Source: Candidatus Latescibacterota bacterium (lineage in GTDB: Bacteria > Latescibacterota > UBA2968 > GCA-2709665). Taken from it: a stretch of DNA of 64,000 nucleotides. This document shows, piece by piece, positions 8,574-28,355 of the stretch. Both the position numbers and the translations under genes were made by a program. The stretch is taken from positions 2,304,001 through 2,368,000 of the forward strand of contig OZ241917.1 in assembly GCA_965203805.1 (NCBI GenBank), written 5' to 3'. The first letter of the stretch is position 1. Each line of letters begins with the position of its first letter. Below the pieces are notes generated by a model, which was given only the letters and a program-made list of their open reading frames with translations, was not told the origin of the DNA and made no database searches.

Positions 8574-8612
8574 TGGCGTCTCCCTTCGTTATTTCAGATC
8601 GTGGTCGTCTCT

Positions 8613-9395
8613 CTATTCCTCGCCGGTTCGGTACTGTTCCAGATTTCCCCTGTATTCAAGGCCGAGAATATCCCGGGACCGCGCGACGTTGCAGGTTCTG
8701 TCGGCCCCGGGCGTACCCACGATGTGGAAAATGTCGAATTCGATGGACGCGGACTCCAGGCTGAGGCGGCAGGCTTCGGCCAGGTCGTGCCGGCAGACCC
8801 AGCCCTGTCGGTAAGGACGTTCTTCCGTACCCAGTTCTTCTCTGTACCGGCCGATGCCGAGTCTGCTGTCGACAATGTAGTCCGGCCGGAGTACGATAAT
8901 GCGGAGACCGAACGCGTCGTGGAACTGCCGGCACATTTCTTCCTGAAGGCGTTTCGTGACGCCGTAAAGGCCGCCGTCGGGCCGCCTGACGTCGGCCGTA
9001 AAGAAAATCCCTTTGGGATGGGCCGTCTGACACGAGCCGATGTGCACGACCCGCCCGATTCCGTGCCGCCGGGCGGATTCCAGCACGTTCCATAGGCCCT
9101 TGATGTTGATGAGAAAGGGCTTCCGGTCGTCGACGCCGTGAGAACCCGGCTCGTCCGAATGGTACACCGCCATGTGCAGGACCGCGTCCATGCCCTCGAT
9201 GGCACTGTGGACGGCTTCAAAATCCACGATGTCTCCATGTACGACCTCACCGCCCGTCCAATCTCCGTCGGTACTCTGCCACGCACGCCACGCCTCCGGG
9301 CCGTAGTCGAACGCCCGGATTCGATGGTTCTCCTCAAGAGCGGCCAGCGCCGCCCGTCCGAGCCAACCGGCCGCGCCGAATACGACAATGTTCAT
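8613..9395 (-). CDS. NAD-dependent epimerase/dehydratase (extended SDR)
   Basis: GAAGWLG Rossmann motif, GDI, HMA, catalytic YGVTK. Confidence 0.88.
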   Translation of the reverse strand: MNIVVFGAAGWLGRAALAALEENHRIRAFDYGPEAWRAWQSTDGDWTGGEVVHGDIVDFEAVHSAIEGMDAVLHMAVYHSDEPGSHGVDDRKPFLINIKGLWNVLESARRHGIGRVVHIGSCQTAHPKGIFFTADVRRPDGGLYGVTKRLQEEMCRQFHDAFGLRIIVLRPDYIVDSRLGIGRYREELGTEERPYRQGWVCRHDLAEACRLSLESASIEFDIFHIVGTPGADRTCNVARSRDILGLEYRGNLEQYRTGEE

Positions 9396-9795: not shown

Positions 9796-12700
9796 CTACT
9801 CGAGTCTGTGAGCGGTCACTTCAATGCGACCGAGGGACTTGAGAGTCCAGGCGACCTGCGGATATCGGTACTTTTCCGACTCGTCGATTCGGCGCTGGCG
9901 ATCTTTTGGTAGGTTGTTGAGTAGTTCCTCGTCTCGTCTAAGCCTGTCCTTCCAGACGGGTAAGATTCGGCGATGGGCATCTTCGTCGCTCCTTCGAAAG
10001 CGGTCCACTATGGTACGAGTCGCTTCTACTTTGTCTCTGGCGGATGTTTGTCTATAGTCGAACCATTTCTCTAGTCTGGCGACTTCTCTATCAACTCGCT
10101 CAGTGGCTTGACTCTCAGCCTGCTTTTGGAGTGTCTCCCGCTTGGAGTTAACGAACTGGTCCGCAAGCTTAGATATCAGGTCAAGATTGTCGGGAATGTC
10201 AGCCGGTTCTATTTCCTGCTCCACATCCTCGAATCGACACGCTCGCCGCACAAGGTTGAGACCGGTTACCTCGTCTACTTCTCCAGCGTCACTTATGAAG
10301 ACTGGCACGAAGTGTTCTATGGATCGAGGTCCGGGAGTCGAGAACTGGTATGTGAAGAGCCATCCTGAACTTGGTGAGAGATCATCGCTGGCTCGGATGC
10401 GACGGGTGCCGGTAATGCCTTCGTAGCTTTCGCTGAGGACGGATCCAACAATTGCATCTACAATTGGATGACCGAAAGTCATGAACTCAATGTCCTCGGC
10501 GTCGGGCCTTTGATCCGGGCGGAAGACTGCTTTCCGTTTCGATCCTGCGGGGAGTAAATTCGGGTGATTCTCGACGAATTCATCACGAAATATCAGTTCA
10601 TAGATGTCCCCCCGACGCTTGATATAAGTGCGCTTATCGGATAGAAGGTGACCGATGAATCGATCGAGAGCTTCATTGGTTATCGGGGAGGGCTCCCCAG
10701 CAATTCGTTCGGCGATCTCTCGGCGGAAGGACTTCGTGTCCATGATGAAGTCACCCAGTTGTCCCTCGGCTTCTTGAGCGCGGCGGACATTGTCCTCTAC
10801 TCGTTTGCCTAACTCTTTAAGAGCAGTTTCCCTCATTTCGGTCGCCAGCCGCATGACTTTCTTGATGTCATCCTCAGTCTCACCGAGGATAGGATCAAGG
10901 CCGCCCACGGTTCTCTCGAAAACTTTAATGCGATTTTCGAGGACGTCCAGGACGCGTTCCTCGATTGTGTCTTTAGCCCAGAGATTGAAGATGTTAACTG
11001 TATGATCTTGGCCGATGCGATCGACTCGACCGATGCGCTGCTCGACCTTCATTGGGTTCCAGGGTAGGTCGTAATTGACGAGCAGATGGCAGAATTGGAA
11101 GTTTCGGCCTTCGCCACCGGACTCTGTGCTGATGAGGACTTGGGGGCCGGGATCGTTTTTAAAACGTTCTACGGCACGGTCCTTTTCTTCTGTTTTCATC
11201 TGCCCGTGGAAGACATTGACGCACCAACCCTGATCTTCGATCAGGTCTTTAAGGTGTCGCTGGGTTTCTCGGAACTGGGTGAACACGAGCACTTTCTCTT
11301 GATCGGGGCTATCATCGAACAATTCGGCGAGCCGTTTGACAAGTACGCGAGACTTTGAATCGCTTTTTACCTGCTCTAGCGCTTCGATAGCTTTGTGGAG
11401 AAGGGATAGTTCGGATTTCGCCATAACCGCGGTGCCGGTATATCCAGCGACATCGCTCCCGTCTTCATCGGCATCGAGTCTTTCTTCAAGCTCGGCATCA
11501 TCGGTGGAAGACCGGGAGCGTCCCATGCCAGATCGGATTTTCTCTCGACGCCTGCTCAACGACTCTCGGATGGCCGCGATGCTTGATGCCATCATCTTCT
11601 GATATATTACCATCACGAAACCAGCAGACCTGTCACTATATGTATCGGCGAGTTGAAAGCCATATTGGACATACTCTTCCACAGCTTGAAGGGCTACGCG
11701 CTCTTCCGTTGTCAACTCGACTTCCCAGCGGTTAGCAACGCGAGGCATAAAGCCGCCAACTACGTTCTTTCGATTCCGAATCAACACTTCGCTGAGGAGG
11801 TGTCGATCAGCGAGTTCGTTCGCAACTTTCTTCCGTACTTCCATACCAGCGGAGAGTCGCTGACGCACCACTTCGACATCAGAGTCGAGCCAGTTCGCTA
11901 TCTTCTCGCTCATCCTGTTGAGGCTCTCGACCGGTAACCGGAATTCATGGCTGTTTAGGTGTTCGACAAGCTGGGAAAGACCGGGCATCTCTTGTCGGTG
12001 TTGTTCAAAGTGATCTTCTGATGGAAAGAGAGCAGGGTCGAGAAGTTCTATGAGCGAGTAGAGCTCATGGGGGTGGAGTTGCATCGGCGTTGCCGTTAGA
12101 AAAAGTACCCCGCGCCGGGCGCAATGTTCCGGTGCCGCGAGATCTCGGACAAGTCGATAGAGTCTGGTCACTTCACCTGAAAGGTGACGTCGCGCATGGT
12201 GGGCTTCGTCTATTATGATAAGATCCCAGTCCACTTCGCTACAGGCCTTCGCCCATTTGTCGTTGACAATCCATCCCGATGAACACAGAATACTGTTTTC
12301 ATACGTGAAGGGGTTTTCTGCATTACCTTGGTTCACCAAGTATTGAACAGTATTTCTATCTAGCACGGCGAAACTCTCATTGAACTTTGTCTTCATTTCG
12401 AACTGCCATTGGCGAACTAGGTTGGGAGGTACGATGGCCAAGACTCTCTGAGCACCGCCTCTCGCCCGGAGTTCCTTTAGGATCATTCCCGCCTCGATTG
12501 TCTTCCCGAGGCCGACCTCATCACACAACAGAAAGCGATGTGGATAGTTGTCAATGACTTTGTGAACCACAGATACTTGGTGAGGCTTGATATCTACACC
12601 AACCCGTCCTAGCGAGATGAGATCGTCGTGGAGATGGAGCGTTTGGTACCATCTAGTCACTTGCTGAAGCCGGTATTGTTGAAGTGAGCCGATCTCGCCC

Positions 12701-13407
12701 TGCTTAAAACGTCCAACTGGGTTCGCGATAAGCAGGGGCCTTAGGTCAGCTTCTGGGACGTTGATAGTTTCCCCACCCTCGACAAAGCACACCCAAGCCG
12801 GTTTCTCCGCCTGCAATGGGGTAAGCACGGAGGCCTTTTCGCCTGTTGATAGCCGTTGAAGGGTTTTGCCTTGGAGCTTCACTCTAGTGAGCGGCGGGTC
12901 TGATTCTACAAATTGGGTGGGTATGTTGTGATCATCCCATCGGACATGGATCCGACTGTCCTCGATTTTTTCGATGACGCCATACGTTTTCGGTCGCGGT
13001 GTCCATTGAACGAGAGCTCCGACCCTAATATCCTGCTCGCTGTAGTATAGAGGGGCTTCCAGTACTGACAAAGGCTCTTTCTTACCCATTCTTTCATGAG
13101 GCCGTGAAAAGGCCGGACTGCCAGCTTTTTTCTGAAGAGTTCGCTTCGTGAGATCTTCTTCCGTGGCCAGTCGGGCCTGTGATGGCGAGATCGTGGCAAT
13201 ACCCATCGTGTTGCCGTCCGGACCCAGAAATTCGACCTCGAGGGCTTCCCCGTTGCCCTGGATACATACAATCGTGCCGACGTCTCCGACTTTCAGCCCG
13301 TCCCCCGGATTGGGTTTCTCAATCAGCGGGCTGGTGTCCGGGACATCCCAAATGTGATCGAGTGGAACTTCGGTTGTAAGCGCTATTACGTCCAGTTCCT
13401 TGAACAT
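9796..13407 (-). CDS. SNF2/RapA-like helicase with fused N-terminal DUF4926-like domain
   Basis: PHQ, DEVGLGKT, IVPPNLVRQW, DEAHH, LTATP, VFTQFRET, STESGGEGRNFQ and EQRIGRVDRIG motifs. N-terminus MFKELDVIALT...GDVGTIV...EVEF fits DUF4926. Confidence 0.88.
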   Translation of the reverse strand: MFKELDVIALTTEVPLDHIWDVPDTSPLIEKPNPGDGLKVGDVGTIVCIQGNGEALEVEFLGPDGNTMGIATISPSQARLATEEDLTKRTLQKKAGSPAFSRPHERMGKKEPLSVLEAPLYYSEQDIRVGALVQWTPRPKTYGVIEKIEDSRIHVRWDDHNIPTQFVESDPPLTRVKLQGKTLQRLSTGEKASVLTPLQAEKPAWVCFVEGGETINVPEADLRPLLIANPVGRFKQGEIGSLQQYRLQQVTRWYQTLHLHDDLISLGRVGVDIKPHQVSVVHKVIDNYPHRFLLCDEVGLGKTIEAGMILKELRARGGAQRVLAIVPPNLVRQWQFEMKTKFNESFAVLDRNTVQYLVNQGNAENPFTYENSILCSSGWIVNDKWAKACSEVDWDLIIIDEAHHARRHLSGEVTRLYRLVRDLAAPEHCARRGVLFLTATPMQLHPHELYSLIELLDPALFPSEDHFEQHRQEMPGLSQLVEHLNSHEFRLPVESLNRMSEKIANWLDSDVEVVRQRLSAGMEVRKKVANELADRHLLSEVLIRNRKNVVGGFMPRVANRWEVELTTEERVALQAVEEYVQYGFQLADTYSDRSAGFVMVIYQKMMASSIAAIRESLSRRREKIRSGMGRSRSSTDDAELEERLDADEDGSDVAGYTGTAVMAKSELSLLHKAIEALEQVKSDSKSRVLVKRLAELFDDSPDQEKVLVFTQFRETQRHLKDLIEDQGWCVNVFHGQMKTEEKDRAVERFKNDPGPQVLISTESGGEGRNFQFCHLLVNYDLPWNPMKVEQRIGRVDRIGQDHTVNIFNLWAKDTIEERVLDVLENRIKVFERTVGGLDPILGETEDDIKKVMRLATEMRETALKELGKRVEDNVRRAQEAEGQLGDFIMDTKSFRREIAERIAGEPSPITNEALDRFIGHLLSDKRTYIKRRGDIYELIFRDEFVENHPNLLPAGSKRKAVFRPDQRPDAEDIEFMTFGHPIVDAIVGSVLSESYEGITGTRRIRASDDLSPSSGWLFTYQFSTPGPRSIEHFVPVFISDAGEVDEVTGLNLVRRACRFEDVEQEIEPADIPDNLDLISKLADQFVNSKRETLQKQAESQATERVDREVARLEKWFDYRQTSARDKVEATRTIVDRFRRSDEDAHRRILPVWKDRLRRDEELLNNLPKDRQRRIDESEKYRYPQVAWTLKSLGRIEVTAHRLE

Positions 13408-13423
13408 ATCTGTCTCCTGACGA

Positions 13424-13756
13424 TCAAGCCGGATATGCCGTAATGAACCTGGGATGGTCGGTTTCTCTGTCGATCTGCCAGACAGTCCTCACGTTTGGGC
13501 TACGTCCATCGGGAGTCGCAAGCGATCCATCTACAACATACTTTACGCCATAGTTACCTTGCTCCTCCTTGATAACTTCATGGCTAGCTCCGTGAACTCG
13601 TAACGCCTCTGAAAAGCTCTGCCATTGTTCTGGCCGAAAGCCGAAGTCGAAAAAGAACTTTGCCTTTTCTCCACCATCCGGATGACTTGCTGAAAGCAAA
13701 TAGCCCGTAATCTTCGTTGGGTCAACGCGAGCCTGTTGTGCGTTGGGTAGCCTCAA
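13424..13756 (-). CDS. DUF6883-like protein (putative toxin/nuclease module usually paired with DUF4926)
   Basis: LPNA...KITGYLL...HPDGGEKAKFF...YGVKY...TVWQID...PRFITAYP. TTG start with gagg RBS. Confidence 0.75.
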   Translation of the reverse strand: MRLPNAQQARVDPTKITGYLLSASHPDGGEKAKFFFDFGFRPEQWQSFSEALRVHGASHEVIKEEQGNYGVKYVVDGSLATPDGRSPNVRTVWQIDRETDHPRFITAYPA

Positions 13757-13931
13757 TCACAAACCTCTGCATGGAGCAATATCGGCCATGCGGTTGCGGT
13801 CCTCGGTGCGTAAGATCCAATCCCGGCCCGTACCGCTCGCCCAACCACGCGCTGCACGAGGTCTTCGATGCCTTCATCAGGTCTGGATGGATAACGAATC
13901 GCAGCCTGGTTTCTTCGATGAATTCAGACGG

Positions 13932-14036
13932 CCACAATATAACGCAATACCCGTACAGCCGAAACCGTCTTGTTTGTGGATTCTTCGAATCGAAAAAAAT
14001 ACGAACGTCCTGACAAACGTCGTCAGGGCGTCTCGC
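13932..14036. repeat. ~100-bp direct repeat, copy 2
   Basis: Matches 9577-9678. Confidence 0.85.
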
Positions 14037-14142
14037 CCGCATTGACGGCGGTTGGCGTGCGCAGAAAACAGGGCAACCTCAAGGGTTGCCCATACATAAG
14101 AATGAACGGATGCGATTGGGAGATGTTTTTGGACCATGCGGG

Positions 14143-14174
14143 ACGAACGCCCCGACGAAAATCGCCGGGGCGCG
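14143..14174 (-). terminator. Hairpin downstream of the beta-CASP gene; third partial copy of the repeat hairpin
   Basis: acgaacgccccgacgaaaatcgccggggcg. Confidence 0.55.
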
Positions 14175-14194
14175 CCGTCGGATGCTAACTGTGC

Positions 14195-15787
14195 TCACGA
14201 ATCCCATCCCCGATGGAATAGATGAGGAGATTGGCGATCCCGAATAAAGGCCTCCTGCCAATCCAACGTCAGGAAAAATTGAAACAGCTTCTCCTCAAGG
14301 AGCGTCGTCGCTTCCGTGCCGAACCAATATTCTGCCAATTCCCGTACGCGAAATGGCCCCGTCGCCCTTATTCTTCGCAGATATGCATTAAGTTCTGCGA
14401 GGATTCTACAATTGCTAGACTGTTTTCCATTCGAGATGCCCACGTGCTTCGTATAGGTGTACGTCCGGCCATTTTTGGGGAGTCGCACGTCCACGGCTGG
14501 AGACGATTCTCGCACGGATTCAGCCAGTTTCTCCCTCGCGGCGTCATCGCCGTGTACGAGAAAGCATTTGTTCGGACGCAGTTTCTTGACCAATTCCGCC
14601 AGTTCTCTCTGGTCTGCGTGCGCTGAAAGTGAGTATCGCTTCACGTTGCAATTCACGTTTGCGCTCACTTCCTGGTCCAATTTCCACTTCCGCTCTTCAG
14701 GTTCTTCTGCCTTTGACAGATTCTCCAGCGCGCGGCCGGGAGTTCCTTCCCCCTGATAGCCCACTATTGCGATCAGGTTCTTCGGATCTCCAGCCAAACG
14801 TTTGGCGTATTCATTCGACAGACCACCGTTCAACATCCCCGAAGAAGATACAATTACACAGGGAGATCCTGACAATATACGCTCCCTATGACCCCTTGAT
14901 TCCACTTTCATTACGTAATCCGAATAAAAAATCTCCTCTCCGAATTTCGCTCCTGCCAGGGACGGATTGAGATCGTCAACCTGACGCAAATACACCTCAT
15001 TGACCTTTTTCACCATCCCGTCAACGTAAACCGGAATCTGATTCCGTTCCATGGCATCCTTCAAAATACGAATGACCTCCTGAGAGCGTGCCACGGCGAA
15101 CGTCGGGATTAACACTTTGCCATCTGCTTCGATCACTTCGGTTACGTCCTGCACAAGAGCAGTTTCTTGTTGGGCCCGATCTTTATGTCGACGATTGCCA
15201 TACGTCGACTCCATCACCATCACGTCCAGGCGGCACAATTCGGGCACGTCCATACCCGGAATGGTCAGTTGATCGTCACCAGACACGTCGCCCGTCATCA
15301 GGATACTTTCCTGTTCGCTCTCAATATAGATCATTGCCGCGCCCAGAACGTGACCTGCGCGAATCCATGTTGCTGTCACGCCGTCGCCTATCTGTACGGG
15401 TTCCTTCCACGGAACCGATTCCATCCGGCTGAAGGCGTAGTTTACGTCGTCGGCAGTGTACTCAGGCGATTTACACTTCTCCTCCCGCTTGACTGCATCG
15501 TCGAATAGCACACGGGTAATTTCTCTGGTTGGAGGGGTACAATACACCTTTTCAGGCAATCTATCCTCCTTGGCAAGCAGAGGCAACGCACCCGTGTGAT
15601 CGCTGTGCGCGTGGGTCAATAGAAGAGCGTCAGGCCTCCACATCTCACGCAAGTCAGGCCACTTTGTCTTTATGGCCGGTCCCATTCGAATGCCCGCGTC
15701 CACCATAATGCGTTGGTCGGCGATTTCAATTAACGTACACGAAGCGCCGACCTCGTCGGCGCCGCCGATAAAATCGAAATGTACCAT
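14195..15787 (-). CDS. MBL-fold beta-CASP ribonuclease (YSH1/CPSF73-like) with C-terminal extension
   Basis: GGADEVGASC, DAG, THAHSDH, AGHVLG, TGD, MESTYG, SSGML, SAHAD and VHGD motifs. RBS aaaggag. Confidence 0.9.
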   Translation of the reverse strand: MVHFDFIGGADEVGASCTLIEIADQRIMVDAGIRMGPAIKTKWPDLREMWRPDALLLTHAHSDHTGALPLLAKEDRLPEKVYCTPPTREITRVLFDDAVKREEKCKSPEYTADDVNYAFSRMESVPWKEPVQIGDGVTATWIRAGHVLGAAMIYIESEQESILMTGDVSGDDQLTIPGMDVPELCRLDVMVMESTYGNRRHKDRAQQETALVQDVTEVIEADGKVLIPTFAVARSQEVIRILKDAMERNQIPVYVDGMVKKVNEVYLRQVDDLNPSLAGAKFGEEIFYSDYVMKVESRGHRERILSGSPCVIVSSSGMLNGGLSNEYAKRLAGDPKNLIAIVGYQGEGTPGRALENLSKAEEPEERKWKLDQEVSANVNCNVKRYSLSAHADQRELAELVKKLRPNKCFLVHGDDAAREKLAESVRESSPAVDVRLPKNGRTYTYTKHVGISNGKQSSNCRILAELNAYLRRIRATGPFRVRELAEYWFGTEATTLLEEKLFQFFLTLDWQEAFIRDRQSPHLFHRGWDS

Positions 15788-15990
15788 TTCAAACTCCTTT
15801 CACAGTTGACATTAAAGGACGATGTTTCCGTCCAAGTTGTCTTGAAGGATGCGTCGTTGCGCGATGCCGATGGGGTCGTGAGGCTATTGAGCCTCGAAGT
15901 GCCACGCATGTGGTAAAGACAATCTCGATGTTGGGATTGACCGGATGCAAGCGTTAGTGCAGGCCGACGGCCAGCCCCTGCGCCGATACA

Positions 15991-16140
15991 TCATTTGCCC
16001 TTACCTCCCCTGGGCGGGGCATTGTCGCGGCCGCCACCGGAACGGTTTCCGGTTTTGGCGGTCCAACCGGCGCCTTGTCCACGGTTGCTGCCTCGACCGC
16101 CACCCCGATTGCCGCCTCTATCACTGCCGCATTTGGCCAT
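15991..16140 (-). CDS. Small Gly/Arg-rich peptide, 49 aa (MAKCGSDRGGNRGGG...GWTAKTGNRSGGGRDNAPPRGGKGK)
   Basis: Very strong RBS gaaaggaggtga upstream of the ATG; same direction as flanking genes. Confidence 0.7.
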   Translation of the reverse strand: MAKCGSDRGGNRGGGRGSNRGQGAGWTAKTGNRSGGGRDNAPPRGGKGK

Positions 16141-16238
16141 TCTCATCACCTCCTTTCCCGTCTTGCGTGTATTCACCGCCTCACGGGGACACTCTGGTTC
16201 CCAGTTGAGGCGATCGACTTGCTTCAGGCAAGGAACCT

Positions 16239-16385
16239 TTACTTCTTTGCCGAAGCGTCGTCAGATGGGTTATTATCTGATCCGTCTGCCCAATTCTCGG
16301 GCCTTTCATCGTCGCCGCGCGACTGCCAATAAGCATCGTTGTTCGGGTTCAACTGATTGGCGCGATTGTCATTGTCGCGATCCAT
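16239..16385 (-). CDS. Small acidic Asn/Asp-rich peptide, 48 aa (MDRDNDNRANQLNPNNDAYWQSRGDDERPENWADGSDNNPSDDASAKK); absent from the ORF track
   Basis: Manual translation. RBS gaaaggaggtgg. First ORF after the sigma54 promoter. Confidence 0.75.
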   Translation of the reverse strand: MDRDNDNRANQLNPNNDAYWQSRGDDERPENWADGSDNNPSDDASAKK

Positions 16386-16489
16386 GATACCACCTCCTTT
16401 CTCTTGGAATCGGGTCGGCTCATGGGGGACACTCAGGTTCCCAGATGTTCCGCAAACCGGGTTACTCTACGATATCTCAATTGAAAAAT

Positions 16490-16505
16490 TGCAAGAACTA
16501 TGCCA
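16490..16505 (-). promoter_or_regulatory. Sigma54 (-24/-12) promoter
   Basis: Minus strand TGGCATAGTTCTTGCA = GG-N10-GC, matching consensus TGGCACGNNNNTTGCW. AT-rich tract upstream. Confidence 0.75.
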
Positions 16506-16575
16506 ATACTTATGTATTTCAAATAAGTCATTTATATTATCTTATGGCAATGAACACACCGGCCCTTTCCTTGCA

Positions 16576-16594
16576 GTTGGTGTAATTTACCAAC
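16576..16594. promoter_or_regulatory. Putative bEBP upstream activating sequence
   Basis: gTTGGTgtaatttACCAAc near-palindrome about 70 bp upstream of the -24 box. Confidence 0.6.
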
Positions 16595-16615
16595 CACAGC
16601 GTTGAAGTCCGCCAT

Positions 16616-18406
16616 CTACGCCTGCCCATCGAGGCGATCATGCTTCTCTCGTGTCCGATGCAATTCCGTTCGTCGAGTTCGCATGGCCCCCGCCTGATCT
16701 ATCTCTATTCCGAGTGTCAGGAGATGCGCCTGGCGAAGCCACCAGAAGGCTTCGAACAAGGGCCGACGCGGCGAGGCGCCGCGTTCGAGATTCGGCCCTT
16801 TGCGATTGAGATGACGAATCCGGCCATGCGCCCTTCTTGCGAGTGTCTGGACCCTTTCATCAGGATCGTTTCTGGAAAGCCAGAACAGCGTTCTGTGCAC
16901 CCGTCCGCCGGGATTGACGCGTAACGCCGTCAGGGCTTGCACATAGCATTGCCTCCACACTCGGCGGGGTTCGACAAATCGTTCGTCTGTGGGATCAATA
17001 GACTCTTTATTCGGCTCAACATTGTCTCTCCGGGTCTTTAGCCGTTCGAGGCAGAATTTGGCAAACGCTTCGCGCAATCCCTTCAAGTGCGGGTCCCGCC
17101 TGAGTTCATCCCGAAGATTCTGCGGATACATGGCGATTCCGATCCACATCGGGAGTCGACTGTAGGGATGAGGCGGAGGTTCTCTGTCAGCCTCGGGCCA
17201 CGGCCGAAGGTCAGACGCTACGGCGGGGACCCGCATCTCCGCGAAAGCCAGCAGGAGGGACCTCAAGCACTTCCAGGGCGCGGCGAAGACGACCAGCGCC
17301 TCAAAGGCTTTTTCGTAGAAATCCGCAACAGGCACGCCCGTCGAGTCCTGACCGTCAAAGGCCTCGGGTGTATCTCGCAACACCTTACGCAGCATGCCGA
17401 CGTGCCTGACCGCGCTGTCCACAATCCGGCTTCTCAGTTCGTCAGAGAGGTCCGATTCCAGCCCACCCATCCCCCGGTAGTAAATCGCCGCGGATAACCG
17501 CCACCAGGCTTTGAGCAATGAAGATCGCCCTGTCGCAGAATCGGGCTGTTTCACACTGAGAAGGTCCAGGAACGGGATCAACTCGTGCGACACAACCCGC
17601 CATCCGTCACCCGCAGGATTCAGACGCTCCGCACCCAATGCAAAGCCGATGCTCATCGCATGTTCGACAGCATTCAGGAGTCCGAGAATCCGGTCGCCCA
17701 GTACATCTTCCGCAGAATTGGAAAACGCCTCTTTCAGGGTGTTCAGGTTTATGGTCTCACGACGTTCCGAGTCTGCGGCGAAACGCCACTTGAGCCAGAA
17801 TTCGAGCTGATCAGGGTCTTCAAAATCCGTACTGGACCACCCCTCTCGCAACATAGGATTCAACAAGGCCGGATTGACGATCTGATCCAACGGCAGGCCT
17901 TCCGGAAAGAGAAATGGAACGAGGTCGAAGAACAGGAATGCGCGTTTGTTTCTTATCTCCACGAGCTTGCGCCAATCCAGGCGTTTTGCTCGAAATTTCG
18001 CCTGCCTTTGAAATTCTCCAACCCACGCGTGAACAACCCAATTTCCGCCTGATTTCACCAGCCCGTGGCCAGGCCGAACCACTTCGCTGTAGACGGGTCC
18101 GAAGCCAAGCAGAAAGCTGAAGAGAAGCGCGAGGCGGGTCTGCTCATCGCCCTCGGGAGGACCCGATTCGTTCAGACCTTCCACGACACCGGGAAGGACG
18201 TGCTCGAAATTGTCCGAGAAATCCTCCCTGAATACGGACGCGCAGCCGGCATCGCCAAAACAGTCCGGACGTTTAAATACCCGAACCAGCCATGCACGAT
18301 CATCACTGGAAAAACCAGCGTCCGCAAGGCACTGTTCTACGTGAGAAATCTCTGAATCATCTGACGGGAAAATCAGGCCGGATGGGCCGTTTTCAGCGTC
18401 GCTCAT
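16616..18406 (-). CDS. Hypothetical alpha-helical protein, 596 aa
   Basis: Long ORF with RBS (aggaaa). C-terminal EPRRVWRQCYVQAL...NDPDERV...FEAFWWLRQAH looks conserved/HEAT-like. No family recognised. Confidence 0.75.
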   Translation of the reverse strand: MSDAENGPSGLIFPSDDSEISHVEQCLADAGFSSDDRAWLVRVFKRPDCFGDAGCASVFREDFSDNFEHVLPGVVEGLNESGPPEGDEQTRLALLFSFLLGFGPVYSEVVRPGHGLVKSGGNWVVHAWVGEFQRQAKFRAKRLDWRKLVEIRNKRAFLFFDLVPFLFPEGLPLDQIVNPALLNPMLREGWSSTDFEDPDQLEFWLKWRFAADSERRETINLNTLKEAFSNSAEDVLGDRILGLLNAVEHAMSIGFALGAERLNPAGDGWRVVSHELIPFLDLLSVKQPDSATGRSSLLKAWWRLSAAIYYRGMGGLESDLSDELRSRIVDSAVRHVGMLRKVLRDTPEAFDGQDSTGVPVADFYEKAFEALVVFAAPWKCLRSLLLAFAEMRVPAVASDLRPWPEADREPPPHPYSRLPMWIGIAMYPQNLRDELRRDPHLKGLREAFAKFCLERLKTRRDNVEPNKESIDPTDERFVEPRRVWRQCYVQALTALRVNPGGRVHRTLFWLSRNDPDERVQTLARRAHGRIRHLNRKGPNLERGASPRRPLFEAFWWLRQAHLLTLGIEIDQAGAMRTRRTELHRTREKHDRLDGQA

Positions 18407-18640
18407 TGTTGTTTCCTGTTAAGCGCCTCGCTATATCCTTGTTGGACAATCGAGCAGGGATGTCAACCTGTTCCGATTGTGAACCCGCAGGATTTCCGGA
18501 GAAGATCCGGAATCGGAAAAGATGCATTAAGCATCGAAGCACGAGGTTCGATCCAAATATACCGGATTAATGATCTGCGTCAAGTGAAAATAGACAAATC
18601 CATGCCCTCCCTAAGGGGCTCCTTATGACAATAACGAACG

Positions 18641-20047
18641 TCAGGTTCTTTCTTTGGCAAGTTCATACTTCCGGTAGAAGTGGCGGAACTGGTCGTAGCT
18701 CAGGCTGAGCGAATCGGCTGCCCTGCGCTGGTTCCAGTTCGTATTGGACAGCGCGCTCCTGAGCAACCCGAGCTCAAAGGATTTGACCTGGGCGTCAAAT
18801 CCGTCTCCCGGCGGCGTCGGTTCTTCACTGGTGATTTCCGGCGGCAAATCCGGGGGTTCAATGGATGGGCCCGTGGCCATGCACGCGGCGCGTTCAACGG
18901 CGAACTTGAGCTCGCGCACGTTTCCGGGCCACGGGTAGCCCTGCAGGTGTCGGAGGGCGCCGTCGGAAAACGGACGCACCGTGAGCCCCGGCACCTCCCG
19001 CACGATTTGCTCGACGAAGAACACCGCAAGCGGATGGATGTCTTCACGCCGCTCGCGAAGCGGAGGAATGCGGATTACTTCGAAGCGGAGGCGGTCGTAG
19101 AGGTCCCGACGAAAGCGGCCTTCGGCAATCTCACGTTCGAGATCGGCATTCGTAGCGGCAATGATCCGGACGTCCACGCTCGCGGGCGAGGCCCCGCCCA
19201 CCCGTTGAATCTCCTGGTACTCGATGGCTCGAAGGACGTTCTGCTGGAATTCGGGTGTGGTGTTGCCAATCTCGTCCAGTAACAGCGTACCGCCGTTGGC
19301 CGCTTCAAACCGCCCGGGCCGGGCTTCGGTCGCTCCGGTGAACGCGCCTTTTTCGTGGCCGAAGAGTTCGCTCTCCAGCAGGTTGGCCGAGAGGGCCGCG
19401 CAGTTGACCTTAACGAACGGTCGATCGCTGCGTACGCCCCCATAGTGGATCGCCGCCGCCACGAGTTCCTTGCCGGTGCCGGGTTCGCCCAACACCAGAA
19501 CCGGCCGGGGTATGGAAGCAATGCGCTCGGCCTGTTGCATGATCCTCAGCATCTGAGGGCTGGCATTGACCGTCCTGTACTTCTTTCCGAACTCGTCCCG
19601 GTAGTATCGATTTTCCCGGTCCAGATCCTTCACCCTGGCCTGAAGCCGCGCATTCTCTCTGAGGACGGCGAGTACGCGGTCGAGTTTTTCCAGGCTGAGT
19701 TCAAGCCGGTCCTCAATATAGAAGTCTTTCTCGATGAAGTCGGATGCGCCCATGCGCAGGGCGGCCACGGCGTTCTCCACGGTACCCTTGCCAGTGAGAA
19801 TGATCACCGGCATATCGGGCACGAGGTCGCGAATCTTGCGCAGGATATTCAGACCGTCCGCCTCGGCCGGTCCGAAATCGATATCCAGAATGGCCATATC
19901 GACGTCCGAAACGTGCGCCTTCAGGTACGCGAAGGCCTGACTTCCCGTTGGAAAAGCCCGCACGATCCTGCCGTCCACCTGAAGGCTTCGCGTGAGCATG
20001 GCCAGTATTTCGGGCTGGTCATCGGCGACGACAATTTGCGCTTTCAT
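18641..20047 (-). CDS. Sigma54-dependent response regulator (REC-AAA+-HTH) with PspF-like output
   Basis: REC (ADD, LDID), [49 protein letters not shown] resembles PspF. Confidence 0.92.
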
Positions 20048-20050
20048 GGT

Positions 20051-21679
20051 CTACTCGATAAATTCCTCTGCCAGGGGCAGCCGCGAGGCGGTCAACGGAT
20101 CGCCGCTCCAGCCGATGCTGTCGGTTCCGGCGACGAGTTCGAAGTCCACCGGAAGATCGATGCGGAACACGGCGCCGGCGCCCGGGCGGCTGATCATCCT
20201 CAGGGTTCCCCTGTGGGCGGAGACGATGCGCGAACAGATGCTCAGTCCGAATCCGTTGCCTTTTTCTTTGGTGGAAAATCCTGGATCGAAGATTCTGGAC
20301 TGGTTCTCTTCGGATATGCCCGGTCCGTTGTCTTCCACCTCGATGAATACCGACCCGCGTCTATTGTCGTAACCGGCCTGTACCGTGACGGCGCCACGCT
20401 CATCGACGGCGTCCAGCGCGTTGAGAATCAGGTTCGTGACGGCTTCACGCAGCATGCCGGGATCCACCTTGACCTGCGGCACCTGTGGTTCGGATGCGAA
20501 GCGGAGCGCCGCGCCGCCGGAACGGGTCGCGACGGCTTGCTTGATTTTGCCCACGAGTTGCGGAATATCCACGAGTGACGGATTCAGCGGATCCTGCTTC
20601 ATGCTGCGCAGATAGGCCACCCACTGGTCGAAGATGTGTTCCTGGTCGCGGGCAATGTGTCGCAGGTCGTCGAGCACGGCGTCGTGCTTCGGAACGCTTC
20701 GAATGAGGCGGCGTGTGCGGCTACCCACCAGACCCATCAGGTTCTTGATCTGGTGACCCCGGGTGTACAGGCTTTCTCCCACCTGTACGCGACCCATGTC
20801 GATGAGTTCAAGGGACAGGCGCGCCAGCACCGAGGCTGCCTGCGTGCCGAATTCCTCGATGATGGACGTATACTCCTGTTCCATCTGGGCCGAACTCTTG
20901 TAATCGAAGAGAAGATGCGCGAGGTTTCTGTAGGGAAGCGCATAGTCCGGCTCGAGCTGGATGGCGATCTTGAACGCGCCCAGAGCCTGAAGGGTCTGAC
21001 CTGTCTGCATAAGCAAAACGCCAAGGTTGTTGTGACCCGGGGCGAACAGCGGATTTGCTTCCAGCCCGCGACGGTATATCGCGATGGCTTCGTCGATGTT
21101 TGCCGGAAGGTCGTCGAGAAAGCTGGCCAACAGGAAGCAGGCGCCATCCACGTTGTCGAATGGCACGCCGCGGTCCACGGCCTCTAGAATAGACCGAAGC
21201 GCTTCAACCGCCTGTTGCCGGCCATTCGATCCGGAGGCCGCGCCTTCGGCCCGCAAAAGCGCCAACTGCAACTGCGCCTCCAGATGGTCGGGATTCATTG
21301 CGATTGCGGATTCAAAAGCCTGCGCAGCTCCCTCGACACCGCCTTTCAACCGGCAGAGACCGATCTTGTAATGCAGGTCCGCTCCATTCTCCGGCGCAAG
21401 TTCCAGGCAACGCGTGAAACACGTCAGCGCGTGCTGCCAGTTGCCCTTTCTGAAATAGACGGCGCCCAGGTTATGGCGCGCCCGTACATTCCCGTCGTCG
21501 GCCGCCAGTGCCGCCACGTAGGCGGCCCCGGCCTTCGACAGGTCGCCTGCTTCCATCGCGTTGTCGCCGTCACGACCGCGCCGCCGGGCTTCGTCGTTCG
21601 CCGATTCCGGCAGGGTCTGTGCGATGCCGATTCGGTTGGCGGCCGCGGGGCGGCTGTCCGATTTTTCGGGTCTGTTCAA
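20051..21679 (-). CDS. Soluble TPR-repeat sensor histidine kinase
   Basis: TPR repeats, H-box GHQIKN, N-box NLILNALDA, DNGPGI, FDPGFSTK, GNGFGL. Start uncertain: TTG at 21679 has a ggag RBS; the ORF extends to 21751. Confidence 0.88.
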   Translation of the reverse strand: MNRPEKSDSRPAAANRIGIAQTLPESANDEARRRGRDGDNAMEAGDLSKAGAAYVAALAADDGNVRARHNLGAVYFRKGNWQHALTCFTRCLELAPENGADLHYKIGLCRLKGGVEGAAQAFESAIAMNPDHLEAQLQLALLRAEGAASGSNGRQQAVEALRSILEAVDRGVPFDNVDGACFLLASFLDDLPANIDEAIAIYRRGLEANPLFAPGHNNLGVLLMQTGQTLQALGAFKIAIQLEPDYALPYRNLAHLLFDYKSSAQMEQEYTSIIEEFGTQAASVLARLSLELIDMGRVQVGESLYTRGHQIKNLMGLVGSRTRRLIRSVPKHDAVLDDLRHIARDQEHIFDQWVAYLRSMKQDPLNPSLVDIPQLVGKIKQAVATRSGGAALRFASEPQVPQVKVDPGMLREAVTNLILNALDAVDERGAVTVQAGYDNRRGSVFIEVEDNGPGISEENQSRIFDPGFSTKEKGNGFGLSICSRIVSAHRGTLRMISRPGAGAVFRIDLPVDFELVAGTDSIGWSGDPLTASRLPLAEEFIE

Positions 21680-21701
21680 GCCATGACTCCCGAATGAAGC
21701 G

Positions 21702-23219
21702 CTACGATTCCGATGGCGTTTCCAATGCGCCCTTGTCGTCGCCGCTTGCATCTGCGTCGCCGGTGGCTTTGCCCAGAAACTCGGGCAGTTCCAGGCCCGC
21801 CAGTTTGGCCAACTCGTGCATTGGCGGGATGGCGCCCATCAGGCGCTGGCCGAGATTGGACATGCCGCCCTGTCCGCCGCCGCCGTCCCAGACCATGATC
21901 TTCTCCAGGGGGAGATTCTGAATGGCTTCCGCCTGAATGCCTGCGACCTCGGTCAGCCGCTCGACGATGAGGAAGGCTGCCGCAGCCTGGTCTTTTCCTC
22001 CGCACGCGGCCACCAACTCCCTGTAACCCTCGGCCTTGGCATCCAGTATGGCCTGGGTACCCTCTGCTTCGGCTCGCTTTTGGGCGAGAATTGCGGCGGC
22101 CTCCCCCTGCGCCACCAGCGTCCTCTGCACCTTCTCAGCCTCCGCCTCTACAACCAGCTTCTGCTTTTCCGCGTCGGCCTGTACCACAATCTCGGCTCTC
22201 AATCGAGCTTCTTCCCGGAGCGCCCGGGCTTCCTCGGCCTCTTTTTCGGCCTTTTCCTGTGCGACCCGGATCGCGCCGTCCGCCGCCTTCGCCGCCTCCT
22301 GCCCCTGTTGCCGCGCGACCTCCTCGGCCACTTTCTGCTGCGCCATATATCCGGCCTTTTTAGAATCGGCATCGGCCTCCGCCTGGACCGCTTCCGCATC
22401 CAGAGAAGAGACCATCCGGCGTTTGTTTCGGGCGGCTTCGGCCTCGCCGATCTGGGCTTCGGATTCCAGGGCGGCAACCCTCTGGCGGCGATCCCTGGTA
22501 GCTTCGGCCTCGCCGATTTCGGCTGCCGCGTTTGCGGCAGCCACGTCGGTGCGCTGGTCCCGTTCCCGCTCGGCTACGCCCACCTTGCCCATCTTCTCCT
22601 GCTCGGCCACGTCGATCGCCGCCTGGTTGATGGCTTCGGCCGCGGCCTTTTGTCCGAGAGCCTTGATATAACCGCTTTCGTCTTCTATATCCTTGATGTT
22701 CACGTTAATCACGGCCAGGCCGATCTTTTCCATTTCGGTGGAGACCGCTTCGTTGACCTTGGACATGAAGGCCTGCCGGTCCTGGTTGATTTCCTCGATT
22801 TCCATCGTGGCGATCACCGCCCGCATCTGGCCGAGGATGATGTCCTGCGCCTGACTCTCGATCTGGTCTCGAGAAAGACCCAGGAGACGTATTGACGCAT
22901 TCTGCATCACGCCCATCTGGTTTGACACCGCCGCGGTAACGGTTGTTGGAACAGACACTCTGATGTTCTCCTGCGACAGGGCGTTGTCCAGATCGATGGG
23001 TACGACAAACGGCTCGAGATCCAGATACTCATAATCCTGCAGGAGCGGCAGCACGAAGGCCGCGCCCCCGTGAACGCATTTTGCCGCCCCTTTTCCGGTC
23101 TTTCCGTAGACGACCAGAATCTTGTTGGACGGGCACCGCTTGTACCTGGAAATAAACGTCACGAAGAGCAGAAACACCACCAGCAGCAGTATAATTGTCA
23201 ATACCGTCTCGGTTGACAC
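21702..23219 (-). CDS. Flotillin family SPFH protein
   Basis: N-terminal TM, RYKRCPSNKILVVYG, HGGAAFVLP, INVNIKDI, Ala/Glu coiled coil. GTG start after gaggag. Confidence 0.93.
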   Translation of the reverse strand: MSTETVLTIILLLVVFLLFVTFISRYKRCPSNKILVVYGKTGKGAAKCVHGGAAFVLPLLQDYEYLDLEPFVVPIDLDNALSQENIRVSVPTTVTAAVSNQMGVMQNASIRLLGLSRDQIESQAQDIILGQMRAVIATMEIEEINQDRQAFMSKVNEAVSTEMEKIGLAVINVNIKDIEDESGYIKALGQKAAAEAINQAAIDVAEQEKMGKVGVAERERDQRTDVAAANAAAEIGEAEATRDRRQRVAALESEAQIGEAEAARNKRRMVSSLDAEAVQAEADADSKKAGYMAQQKVAEEVARQQGQEAAKAADGAIRVAQEKAEKEAEEARALREEARLRAEIVVQADAEKQKLVVEAEAEKVQRTLVAQGEAAAILAQKRAEAEGTQAILDAKAEGYRELVAACGGKDQAAAAFLIVERLTEVAGIQAEAIQNLPLEKIMVWDGGGGQGGMSNLGQRLMGAIPPMHELAKLAGLELPEFLGKATGDADASGDDKGALETPSES

Positions 23220-26885: not shown

Positions 26886-27515
26886 TCAGAGTTCATCCAC
26901 GGGTCTTGCCCGGTGCTTTTCCTCACCGCGCTCTATATCAGGAAAGTGGTACACCACAAGACCGGAATCGGAAACGCGCACCTCGGCGCTGCCTTTTTCC
27001 CCCAGGATGCGCAGGATCTCGTCCGCCTTTTCCACGGTCATTCTCCCATCCGTGGCCGCTTCCAGCACGGTAAGGCTGCCTCCCTTTTCTCGGGCGAGCC
27101 TGAGCAGGCGATGTTGATATTGCGCGTATCGTTTCAGGTCGGCCGATTCGTGAGCCCTGCGCCCGGCAAGCCTGAAGACAACTGCGCCGGTCAGTGACAG
27201 GATAAAAAGCAGCGCCTCCGGGTGAAACGAGCGCTCGACAATGCTCATGACGAAGGGGACGATCGCGGCGAACAGACACAAGATCGCGGCGGCTTTCAGA
27301 AAGTGTCCGAGGACGTATCGCATGTCGCAGCTCCAATTGATGGCCATGTCCGAGATTCGTGTCGACAGACCCTGGGACCTTGAACGGCAAACCTGACGCT
27401 GGTATTGCCGCCCATTGCCGCCCCTCCGGGCCGCCTCCACGGCCTTTTTCGCATCGCGCACGGCATTCCTGACTTCATACGCGATCTCGTCCAGAATTTT
27501 CTGTACGTCACGCAT
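26886..27515 (-). CDS. Membrane protein (2 TM) with C-terminal winged-helix-like domain
   Basis: Start overlaps the pspA stop. LLRLAREKGGSLTVLEAA...ADEILRIL...VRVSDSGLVVYHFP fits a wHTH pattern. Confidence 0.7.
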   Translation of the reverse strand: MRDVQKILDEIAYEVRNAVRDAKKAVEAARRGGNGRQYQRQVCRSRSQGLSTRISDMAINWSCDMRYVLGHFLKAAAILCLFAAIVPFVMSIVERSFHPEALLFILSLTGAVVFRLAGRRAHESADLKRYAQYQHRLLRLAREKGGSLTVLEAATDGRMTVEKADEILRILGEKGSAEVRVSDSGLVVYHFPDIERGEEKHRARPVDEL

Positions 27516-28185
27516 CGGACTTGCGCATCCTGTCTTTCAGGGCCTGCAGTTCCTCTTCCACGGTGTTCCGCCGCTCCAGCTTTTCGAACGAGTCTTCGAG
27601 CGAAGGATCTTCCCCCGCGATTTCGGCGTGCGCATGGGCCTCTGCTTCTTCGGTCTCTACACGATTACGGAAGCGCTCGAAGCTCGAAAACGCGTCGTCG
27701 CCGATGCCCGATAGGCCCTGGGCGATCTGCTTTCTCGCCTGGGCGGCGCGGCGCCGGGCGATGAGAGCGCCCTGGCGGGTGCGCGCCTCGTCCAGTTTGG
27801 ATTTGAGCTGCGTCAGTTGCTTCTTGAGCTGATCGGAGGTCTTGTGGCTTTCGTCGAAAGCGACTTCCAGATCCCGGGCGGCTTTTTCAACCGCGGCCTT
27901 TCGTTCCAGGGCGCGCCGGGCCAGGTCGTCTTCGCCGGATTCGACGGCCAGTTCCGCCTTCTTCTGCCAGGACTCGATCTGGTCCGTCTTCTCCAGCAAC
28001 TGACGCTCGAGGCGTTTTTCGTTGGCAACCGCGGTGCCGACGGACGCGGTTGCCTTGTTGACGGCCTCTTCCATTTCAAGGATCATCTGCCGGATCATCT
28101 TTTCCGGATCTTCGGCGCGATTCAGAAGATCATTGATGTTGGCCTTGACGATGTCCGCCATGCGGGAGAAGATTCCTTTGGCCAT
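27508..28185 (-). CDS. pspA: PspA/IM30 family protein
   Basis: GIFSRMADIVKANINDLLNRAEDPEKMIRQMILEME...EDDLARRALERK...VEEELQALK. Confidence 0.95.
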   Translation of the reverse strand: MAKGIFSRMADIVKANINDLLNRAEDPEKMIRQMILEMEEAVNKATASVGTAVANEKRLERQLLEKTDQIESWQKKAELAVESGEDDLARRALERKAAVEKAARDLEVAFDESHKTSDQLKKQLTQLKSKLDEARTRQGALIARRRAAQARKQIAQGLSGIGDDAFSSFERFRNRVETEEAEAHAHAEIAGEDPSLEDSFEKLERRNTVEEELQALKDRMRKSDA

Positions 28186-28277
28186 GGTCTTTCTCCTTTC
28201 TATCGTGGGTCTTTTGATCCCACGAGGGTGGAAAAATCCGATTTCCTGGTATAATTCAGGGTTCTGCCGACATTCCT

Positions 28278-28293
28278 TGCAAGTATCGTACCC
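28278..28293 (-). promoter_or_regulatory. Sigma54 promoter of pspA
   Basis: Minus strand GGGTACGATACTTGCA (GG-N10-GC). Confidence 0.72.
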
Positions 28294-28355
28294 GTTTGAC
28301 GAAAAAGCTGACGCCGCTGTTAAATATCGGTATTTAGAGGATTTAGACAAATCTT

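Follow-up and report, generated by a model that had tools for sequence, protein, structure and literature searches.

A constant gene head, modular micro-proteins and structured leader RNAs precede an RNA-type beta-CASP nuclease in an apparently mobile cassette of a Latescibacterota bacterium

Why should two very small peptide genes, one acidic and one basic, stand directly ahead of a ribonuclease gene? The question is raised by a stretch of 64,000 nucleotides from a Candidatus Latescibacterota bacterium (GenBank contig OZ241917.1, positions 2,304,001 to 2,368,000; hereafter the window), for which a preliminary description had proposed a sigma54-inducible RNA-processing system made of the peptide genes pepA and pepB and a beta-CASP nuclease. 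Here, we compared this locus with homologous loci; coordinates are positions in the window, and all features of the cassette lie on the minus strand. We found that the peptide and nuclease genes belong to a larger unit (18583-14063), which starts with a sigma70-like promoter, a structured leader and a gene for a 596-residue protein (P596) and is closed by an intrinsic terminator with an 8-base-pair GC-rich stem and a T run (14063..14091). By comparison of sequences, this unit appears to be a mobile and apparently undescribed cassette: no curated family describing the arrangement was found, nor, in the searchable literature, any paper on the peptide motifs, the leader or the cassette. The proposal of an undescribed system stood in this respect, while the unit turned out to be bigger than described, P596, the RNA leaders, a 20-nucleotide box and the terminator having been missed. 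We see about an even chance that it is an RNA-gated, defence-like cassette with an exchangeable effector, which here would be a CPSF73-type RNase.

The cassette comparison comprised 22 loci with downstream sequence, of which 19 belong to genomes in the phylum and 3 are metagenomic. P596 (16616..18406 in the window) was constant across loci as the first gene, and a small open reading frame (ORF) of 33-65 codons followed it directly in 22/22 loci, with a ribosome site near-identical to AAAGGAGGTG. The last gene was a beta-CASP nuclease in nine loci (one of them truncated), a prokaryotic viperin in ten and a B12-binding radical-SAM gene in three. PADLOC scans of five of the ten viperins gave matches to pVip models (E 1e-88 to 1e-118), and two of the three radical-SAM genes, likewise scanned, matched the PADLOC candidate PDC-M51A (E 1e-66 and 1e-76); the remaining viperin and radical-SAM genes were assigned via a common N-terminal sequence. 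The exchange was visible at one and the same chromosomal site in the genus of the window, which holds the nuclease in genomes G000 and G003 and a viperin in G001. In the homologous cassettes, the viperin was often followed by a P-loop kinase-like ORF, and in one locus (L132:6911-9247) two effectors are stacked, with a beta-CASP nuclease gene after a B12-radical-SAM gene. We found no paper on PDC-M51, and none that, judged by title or abstract, links a prokaryotic viperin to a riboswitch.

In the window, the last gene encodes a CPSF73/aCPSF1-type beta-CASP nuclease of 530 residues (14195..15787) with the Pfam domains Lactamase_B, Beta-Casp (PF10996, 89.3 bits; cut-off 27.7) and RMMBL (PF07521, 56.5 bits; cut-off 21.6). 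The motifs HAHSDH at residues 59-64, H146, D167, E193, H390 and H412 are all present; aligned with the archaeal MTH1203 (PDB 2ycb), they correspond to its motifs A, B and C at the ESTYG, SGHSD and CHGD stretches. According to a published account (PMC3095777), a histidine in motif C is typical of beta-CASP enzymes acting on RNA and a valine of those acting on DNA, and the window nuclease carries the histidine. By its domains and motifs, it is an RNA-type beta-CASP enzyme with intact catalytic motifs, in agreement with the preliminary description. Its two closest relatives (73% and 69% identity) lie in syntenic loci after a P596 homologue, each with a single peptide gene, of the B type in one and of the A type in the other (see below). 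The other relatives (49-57% identity) are all about 840-900 residues long and stand in unrelated contexts; most relatives have such a paralogue, with a C-terminal extension of roughly 310 residues, as at L011:622-3132 and in about 20 further loci, and it was not found in the genome of the window at E<=1e-20.

We then asked whether the peptides belong to the nuclease. PepA (16239..16385) is a peptide of 48 amino acids with an isoelectric point of 4.1, containing 12 D+E and 9 N and an A module, DNRANQLNPNNDAYWQSRG..ERPxxW. PepB (15991..16140) has 49 amino acids, an isoelectric point of 11.9, 17 G and 11 K+R, and is an RGG-rich peptide in which an N-terminal MAKxxG is joined to a B module, (W)xxKTGNxSGGGRxNAPP. 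Reading of the strand and the ORF list both confirmed these two ORFs and the ribosome site GAAAGGAGGTG that they share (16401-16391 and 16157-16147). The 20-nucleotide box CTGGGAACCNGAGTGTCCCC also precedes both genes, and these are its only two copies in the genome. In the pepA leader (16386..16444), the box CTGGGAACCTGAGTGTCCCC with a short GGGA/TCCC hairpin is followed by the strong ribosome site AAAGGAGGTG; the inner helix at this box was 93.5% paired with three covarying pairs, and the whole hairpin 78.6% paired. In the pepB leader (16141..16215), a hairpin GATCGCCTCA...TGAGGCGGT encloses the second box copy and is again followed by AAAGGAGGTG; P596 genes of other loci have a 3' end similar to the 5' arm of this hairpin.

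Most peptides at this slot in the 22 loci start with MAKSxG, continued by one of three modules: A (DNRANQLNPNNDAYWQSRG..ERPDDWE), B ((W)PSKTGNPSGGGRxNAPP) or C (MTPKDAARIQ...GSFAARAQRAA). Modules are also combined within one peptide, as A+B in L110 and B+B in L119, while two separate peptide genes, A and B, were found only at the window locus. Type A peptides preceded five nucleases, two viperins and no radical-SAM gene; type B preceded three nucleases, five viperins and three radical-SAM genes; type C was found before two viperins, the A/B chimera before one viperin, and the two-gene arrangement before the one nuclease of the window. The peptide type does not go with the last gene, which argues against nuclease-specific cofactors, and the suggestion that the peptides are cofactors or inhibitors of the nuclease was contradicted by the same peptide types preceding viperin and radical-SAM genes. 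A type II toxin-antitoxin pair was likewise considered and rejected, because A, B and C peptides combine freely with three effector kinds and no enzyme-specific small protein was seen. In a contig of a relative from run X5, the stretch corresponding to 16057-16391, from inside pepB to upstream of pepA, is replaced by 90 other letters that leave the slot with just one peptide gene of another sequence, which fits cassette exchange at the peptide position.

Homologues of both peptides occur in many lineages. The pepA family comprised 285 protein clusters, with 329 loci in species-representative genomes, and its hosts include Dehalococcoidia, Pseudomonas, Vibrio, Acidovorax, Flavobacteriia, Verrucomicrobia and an archaeal metagenome-assembled genome (MAG); the pepB family comprised 330 clusters. 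Neither family has a name, a Pfam or NCBIfam family or a solved relative, and a profile search of the PDB with the pepA alignment gave no match at E<=1. For 80 A-module segments from 73 loci, chosen by peptide pattern, the entropy at codon positions 1, 2 and 3 was 0.42, 0.25 and 1.19 bits. The low entropy at the first two positions against a free third position indicates selection on the peptide sequence, and it bears out, together with the cluster counts, that the peptides are conserved coding genes. The genome of the window holds no second copy of pepA or pepB. On plasmids, we found five pepA matches, all hypothetical or unannotated, and the ESM Atlas returned unnamed clusters for pepA at scores of at most 0.87, one of them half-viral by two records.

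The neighbourhoods of the 80 best pepA loci were then inspected. P596 was near none of them and a beta-CASP gene near two, directly downstream in a Stutzerimonas genome, and a B-type peptide gene lay at most 250 nucleotides from pepA in 3/80 loci (Vibrio, Azonexus and Latescibacterota). The linkage expected between the peptides and beta-CASP genes was borne out insofar as the peptides recur beside each other and beside RNases in very distant lineages, but a beta-CASP gene in only 2/80 loci fell short of it. On this comparative evidence, the peptides are real genes with recurrent links to each other and to a guild of genes, and they are not specific to the nuclease as its partners. A convergent gene for a hypothetical protein of about 380-500 residues without a Pfam family follows pepA homologues in proteobacteria (L053:6304-7500, L054:6205-7338 and L030:6045-7559; on plasmids, CP147412.1 87655-88788 and NZ_CP049142.1 179406-180602); clusters of such convergent neighbours were present in 14, 7 and 5 of the 80 loci. 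The convergent neighbour of about 400 residues was tried as a relative of P596 and rejected at an hhalign probability below 1%. Loci L134-L140, from one low-GC metagenome, encode P596-like proteins of only remote similarity (28-35% identity across the C-terminal third), followed by double-motif pepA-like (..NVHNPNSEAY...NQLNQFHDAFYESRG..) and pepB-like peptides. They also carry NYN/LabA-like genes, assigned from the N-terminal sequence, a viperin-like radical-SAM gene and a MoxR-like ATPase gene, and L137 has a radical-SAM gene. This suggests a wider gene guild.

We also examined what stands between the peptide gene and the last gene. In the window, the structured region between pepB and the nuclease spans 15981-15785 and consists of a hairpin, H1, immediately past the pepB stop codon (15933..15981), and an effector leader (15785..15910; alignment A5 of 18 loci). 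The leader comprises a three-way junction (15910-15847), a CCTT(T)CA stretch complementary to the nuclease ribosome site (15848-15839), a hairpin P4 (15833-15817) and the ribosome site GAAAGGAG with the ATG (15803-15785). This non-coding stretch is conserved whichever gene follows. H1 begins 9-12 nucleotides past the peptide stop codon in the aligned loci, and its 8 pairs were 95.7% paired across 18 loci, with 5 pairs changed on both sides. For both H1 and the three-way junction, there is support from RNAalifold as well as from pair counts. In the trimmed A5 model of the effector leader, 92.5% of cells were paired, versus 35-44% when the partners were slid, and 9 pairs were changed on both sides. 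The pairing of CCTTTCA with GAAAGG of the ribosome site was present in 85% of cells; in L123 and L124, one CG pair has become UA, a change on both sides.

R1, a covariance model built for the leader, gave a single match in the genome of the window. It matched 15 of 151 genomes of the phylum, each time at the P596 locus except for one contig-end fragment, and all three close metagenomic loci, among which L132 was matched twice, once before the radical-SAM gene and once, weakly (21 bits), before the nuclease gene. That the leader RNA was found only in the cassette argues against a general metabolite switch.

The head of the cassette carries a comparable structure. A sigma70-like promoter (TTGACG, a 16-nucleotide spacer and TATATT; 18556..18583) scored 10/12 matches in the scan, and a TTGACA-like -35 and a -10 region upstream of P596 align across 18/20 loci. 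The P596 leader (18481..18549; alignment A7 of 20 loci) starts where transcription from this promoter is expected to begin and folds into a three-way junction with the helices GAACCTCG/CGGGTTC, GATGC/GCATC and CGATxCCGG/CCGGAAATC. It was paired in 97.3% of cells, versus 29-49% when slid, and 8 pairs were changed on both sides, a number reached by 0 of 500 shuffles. The compensatory changes and the fixed position argue that the effector leader and the P596 leader are conserved structured RNAs of a cis-regulatory type. A scan of 13000-19000 with the 4227 Rfam families at E<=1 returned only two chance microRNA rows, far below their gathering scores. Both three-way junctions (18481-18549 and 15847-15910) hold a hairpin opening with a GATCCC-like sequence after a CTCTT-like run (CUCUUCCGAUCCCGA versus CUCUUGAUCCC in most loci), which may be a recognition element shared by the two.

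P596 itself matched no Pfam, NCBIfam or PADLOC family. In the phylum, 19 of 168 genomes and 5 of 49 genera have a homologue, and in the genus of the window 3 of 15 genomes do. A large protein collection held 428 clusters, the few named ones being 'hypothetical protein' of Poribacteria and Gemmatimonadetes MAGs, and among 471 representatives at E<=0.001 the conservation lay mostly in the C-terminal half; P596 was not found in IMG/VR. Longer forms exist, P0361 (1195 residues) and P0362 (862 residues), one of which has five matched stretches and may be duplicated or fused. The AF2 model is all-helical (pLDDT 66.6), with armadillo and karyopherin repeats as the best structural matches, at Foldseek TM about 0.2 and VIA Z up to 9, below chance level for helical repeats. 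Together with weak HEAT-like leads in the ESM Atlas (scores of at most 0.90, low recognition), the model suggests that P596 generically resembles an ARM/HEAT-like solenoid. A complex prediction for P596 with PepB scored 0.02, a value that counts neither for nor against an interaction.

The cassette further lies in a block that is patchy within the genus. In three congeners without P596, the activator gene that borders the cassette in the window is joined directly to a homologue of the gene at 8594-9388, and a fourth congener, G009, has only remnants of the DUF6883 and SNF2 genes. The block missing in these congeners indicates an inserted island, about 9.2 kb long and holding P596, the peptide genes, the nuclease, a DUF6883 gene and a DUF4926-SNF2 helicase gene, with the activator as a resident core gene. 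The latter two island genes occupy 9796-13756 (minus strand) and encode 110 and 1203 residues, the helicase with BrxHI/DrmD/RapA-like scores; among the cassette and neighbour proteins scanned, this helicase alone matched PADLOC models (BrxHI/DrmD). The gene beyond the cassette head varies by lineage, being the sigma54 activator in the genus of the window and, as named by eye from sequence, a dTDP-sugar-dehydratase-like gene in another family and an RND-pump gene in a third.

How far does sigma54 control this cassette? The elements on which the preliminary description built were all present on the minus strand: an imperfect palindrome GTTGGTAAATTACACCAAC with the core TGGTAAATTACACCA (16576..16594), a candidate activator site about 90 nucleotides upstream of the -24 box; an AT-rich tract with 67% A+T (16575 to 16506); and a -24/-12 promoter TGGCATAGTTCTTGCA, TGGCAT-N5-TTGCA (16490..16505). 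The promoter has GG-N10-GC spacing, from which a transcript start is expected near 16478-16480, and 10 of 11 specified bases match TGGCAC-N5-TTGCW. The strict pattern TGGCAY-N5-TTGCA occurred at 9 sites in the 5.87-Mb genome, TGGCATAGTTCTTGCA among them, versus 4 for a reversed control. TGGCATAGTTCTTGCA was also the sole site in the window with at most one mismatch, while sites with at most two mismatches were at chance level (18 versus 13.9 expected). The match to a sigma54 promoter is thus more than chance would give. The genome encodes rpoN (Sigma54_DBD at E 1.1e-58), and an NtrC-type activator with REC, Sigma54_activat and AAA-lid domains (18641-20047) lies 2 kb upstream of the promoter.

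Comparison narrowed the claim of sigma54 control. With at least 9 of 11 bases required, a promoter stood at the same position in 4 of 19 cassettes and was absent in 15; the four are the three of the genus, namely that of the window, L110 and L111 (where the -12 GC is GT), and L121. The palindrome and the AT-rich tract accompany it in all three loci of the genus, the palindrome being perfect in L111 (TGGTG-AATTA-CACCA). The expected linkage of pepA with -24/-12 boxes failed, as a sigma54 promoter was present at 2 of 80 pepA homologue loci versus 18 of 800 background windows, which is no enrichment. These two results support a lineage-specific second promoter, and we consider it credible that the promoter was added in this way. 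It would raise transcription of the peptide genes, and possibly of the nuclease, independently of P596. What stood of the original claim is that promoter and palindrome are kept in the genus and that rpoN and an activator are present; what did not is generality, and the activator is a core gene. No second close copy of the palindrome was found in the genome, and the region upstream of pspA has none. The best match of the activator was PspF (344 bits, under the cut-off of 443.55), with pspA and flotillin genes no more than 10 kb away. A GG-N10-GC box, GGGTACGATACTTGCA, is located at 28278-28293 (minus strand), about 95 nucleotides ahead of a gene for PspA/IM30, which has a strong ribosome site and is annotated as ORF 27508-28350, its start probably being near 28184. 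The REC-sigma54 activator and a TPR histidine kinase (20051-21751) may regulate pspA rather than the cassette. One RNA sequencing run, taken as contigs, contained 7% of the searched words.

Taken together, the constant head with an exchangeable tail, the patchiness, the exchange of both effector and peptide at one site within a genus, the bona fide viperins and the tight RNAs favour an RNA-gated, defence-like cassette. In such a cassette, the sigma70-like promoter and the structured leader would drive P596, followed by strongly translatable, putatively disordered peptides assembled from the interchangeable modules A, B and C. The last gene would be a harmful effector, here an RNA endo- or exonuclease that would cut transcripts and shut down the expression of phage or host genes; the tight RNA structures ahead of this gene are consistent with an enzyme that has to be kept off. 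The leader would silence the effector by pairing CCTTTCA with its ribosome site, H1 and P4 possibly adding attenuation, and a signal sensed by a common component (P596, the peptides or a host factor) would open it. The peptides would be part of the half that senses or regulates, or have a general protective role, rather than being partners of the nuclease. In a more far-reaching version, P596 and the modular disordered micro-proteins would control the translation of interchangeable toxic enzymes via two three-way-junction RNAs, as a new immune or stress module in which the peptides would signal, serve as a decoy or condense with RNA through their charge. We regard this version as less likely than not and put it forward tentatively.

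Several observations weigh against the defence-like reading. The 22 loci are mutually related, so that their counts are not independent. PADLOC 2.0.0 returned no family for P596, PepA, PepB or the nuclease, pepA was not found in 50,697 phage records, and no cassette copy was seen in phage records or viral contigs; a defence role is accordingly one suggested by association alone. The ribosome-site helix is mostly invariant and gives little covariation support, and a single-sequence fold of L118 buries the start codon in another hairpin instead, so that sequestration is something we only infer. The window's own copy of the leader scored 110.6 bits, the lowest among the full-length matches in the genus, with a degenerate P3 helix, one T missing from CCTTTCA and a fold z of -0.95. 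Finally, the type C peptide (L122 and L125) matches Pfam SMP (PF04927) at E 3.7e-4, with L122 at 21.2 bits versus a cut-off of 22, and the pspA and flotillin neighbourhood of the activator fits a role in abiotic stress.

The last two points belong to the main rival, an abiotic-stress or dormancy module with hydrophilin- or LEA-like protectants, a last gene that arrests growth, and sigma54 control through an envelope-stress or two-component pathway. It gains from the type C peptide lying near the SMP cut-off, from slot peptides that are all small, hydrophilic and rich in Gly, Asn, Asp and Arg with very strong ribosome sites, from an activator that scores best against PspF with pspA and flotillin within 10 kb, and from pepA and pepB homologues that are widespread without P596 or an effector nearby. 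PepA and PepB themselves gave no Pfam SMP match, and their membership in SMP/LEA was not borne out. The patchiness, the effector swap at one site and the BrxHI/DrmD-like SNF2 neighbour are what defence islands typically show, the matches of the viperins to pVip reach E 1e-118, and the adjacency of sigma54 promoter and activator is confined to one genus, with L121 added for the promoter alone; with these in mind, we hold the stress module to be rather unlikely.

Two further explanations concern the peptide genes directly. The small ORFs could act in cis as leader ORFs, ribosomes ending at the stop codon melting H1 and setting the leader fold, so that effector synthesis would report the state of translation; this may be compatible with either the defence-like or the stress reading. 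Such a role would account for a covarying H1 about 10 nucleotides past the stop codon and for a peptide ORF that is always directly upstream of the leader with differing peptide sequences tolerated there. Yet the amino-acid sequence of the modules is kept from phylum to phylum and third codon positions are free, the modules also stand as genes of their own far from such a leader, the gap between H1 and the junction is about 20-45 nucleotides (22 in the window), and no alternative pairing was demonstrated, which makes the leader-ORF explanation improbable in our view. More improbable still is the operon as originally conceived, with pepA, pepB and the RNase as the whole sigma54-inducible unit and the peptides acting directly on the RNase. 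The promoter, palindrome and AT-rich tract are real and kept in the genus, rpoN and an activator gene are present, A- and B-type peptides are neighbours in 3/80 pepA loci, and the Stutzerimonas homologue stands directly upstream of a beta-CASP gene. What speaks against it is that the peptide type does not go with the effector, that A and B occur as two genes only in the window, that beta-CASP genes are near only 2/80 pepA loci, that the promoter is in 4/19 cassettes, and that the activator is a core gene at the insertion site.

If the RNA-gated, defence-like reading is right, its interest lies in the control module. Viperins and CPSF73-like nucleases are treated as stand-alone effectors, and here one common module, unnamed in databases, precedes both as well as a candidate radical-SAM gene, which makes it a testable case of how dangerous enzymes may be silenced and released in bacteria. 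The cassette also supplies a first genomic context for two widespread micro-protein families of about 300 clusters each, along with two new covarying RNA structures. Should the leader be a switch operated by a ligand or a protein, an immune cassette would have a regulatory RNA of its own, which would be unusual, and if the new-module version holds, the A and B families would represent a general, unnoticed class of defence- or stress-linked micro-proteins.

Compared with known systems, the cassette shares parts with several. Prokaryotic viperins, which occur alone or with nucleotide kinases (PADLOC PDLC02903-02905; bioRxiv 10.1101/2025.09.30.679545), are the last gene in 10 of 22 homologous cassettes, in the place of the nuclease; the window cassette has none. 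The pVips are described as single genes or gene pairs, whereas the homologous viperins here sit behind P596, a peptide gene and an RNA leader, none of which is in PADLOC. The nuclease scored 315.9 bits against NCBIfam aCPSF1 (FttA), below the cut-off of 580.2 bits for the equivalog TIGR03675, and matched PDB 2ycb at E 5.5e-62; the aCPSF1 match begins at profile position 175, indicating a nuclease without the KH domains. Against Cas14 of type VII CRISPR, a comparison of scores alone, it reached 264.8 bits (NF045584, cut-off 800) and E 8.8e-58 (8yhd). It keeps all metal-binding and beta-CASP motifs of CPSF73, aCPSF1 and Cas14 and has, in addition, a C-terminal stretch of about 90 residues in common with the paralogues of about 840-900 residues.

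Hydrophilins and LEA proteins of the SMP type are likewise small, hydrophilic and of low complexity, as are the slot peptides, but PepA and PepB of the window differ in matching no SMP profile. Known leaders sequester ribosome sites, and three-way-junction riboswitches exist. The cassette, too, has a covarying junction and, directly after it, a sequence complementary to the ribosome site that lies downstream, in a leader that differs from those riboswitches in matching no Rfam family. CBASS, retrons and Avs combine a conserved sensing part with swappable effectors. The cassette likewise has a constant upstream half and an exchangeable enzymatic last gene, a patchy distribution and a place in a variable island. 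Scans of the cassette genes found no cyclase, reverse transcriptase or STAND ATPase; in their stead, the constant half appears to consist of a predicted solenoid protein, micro-proteins and RNAs acting in cis.

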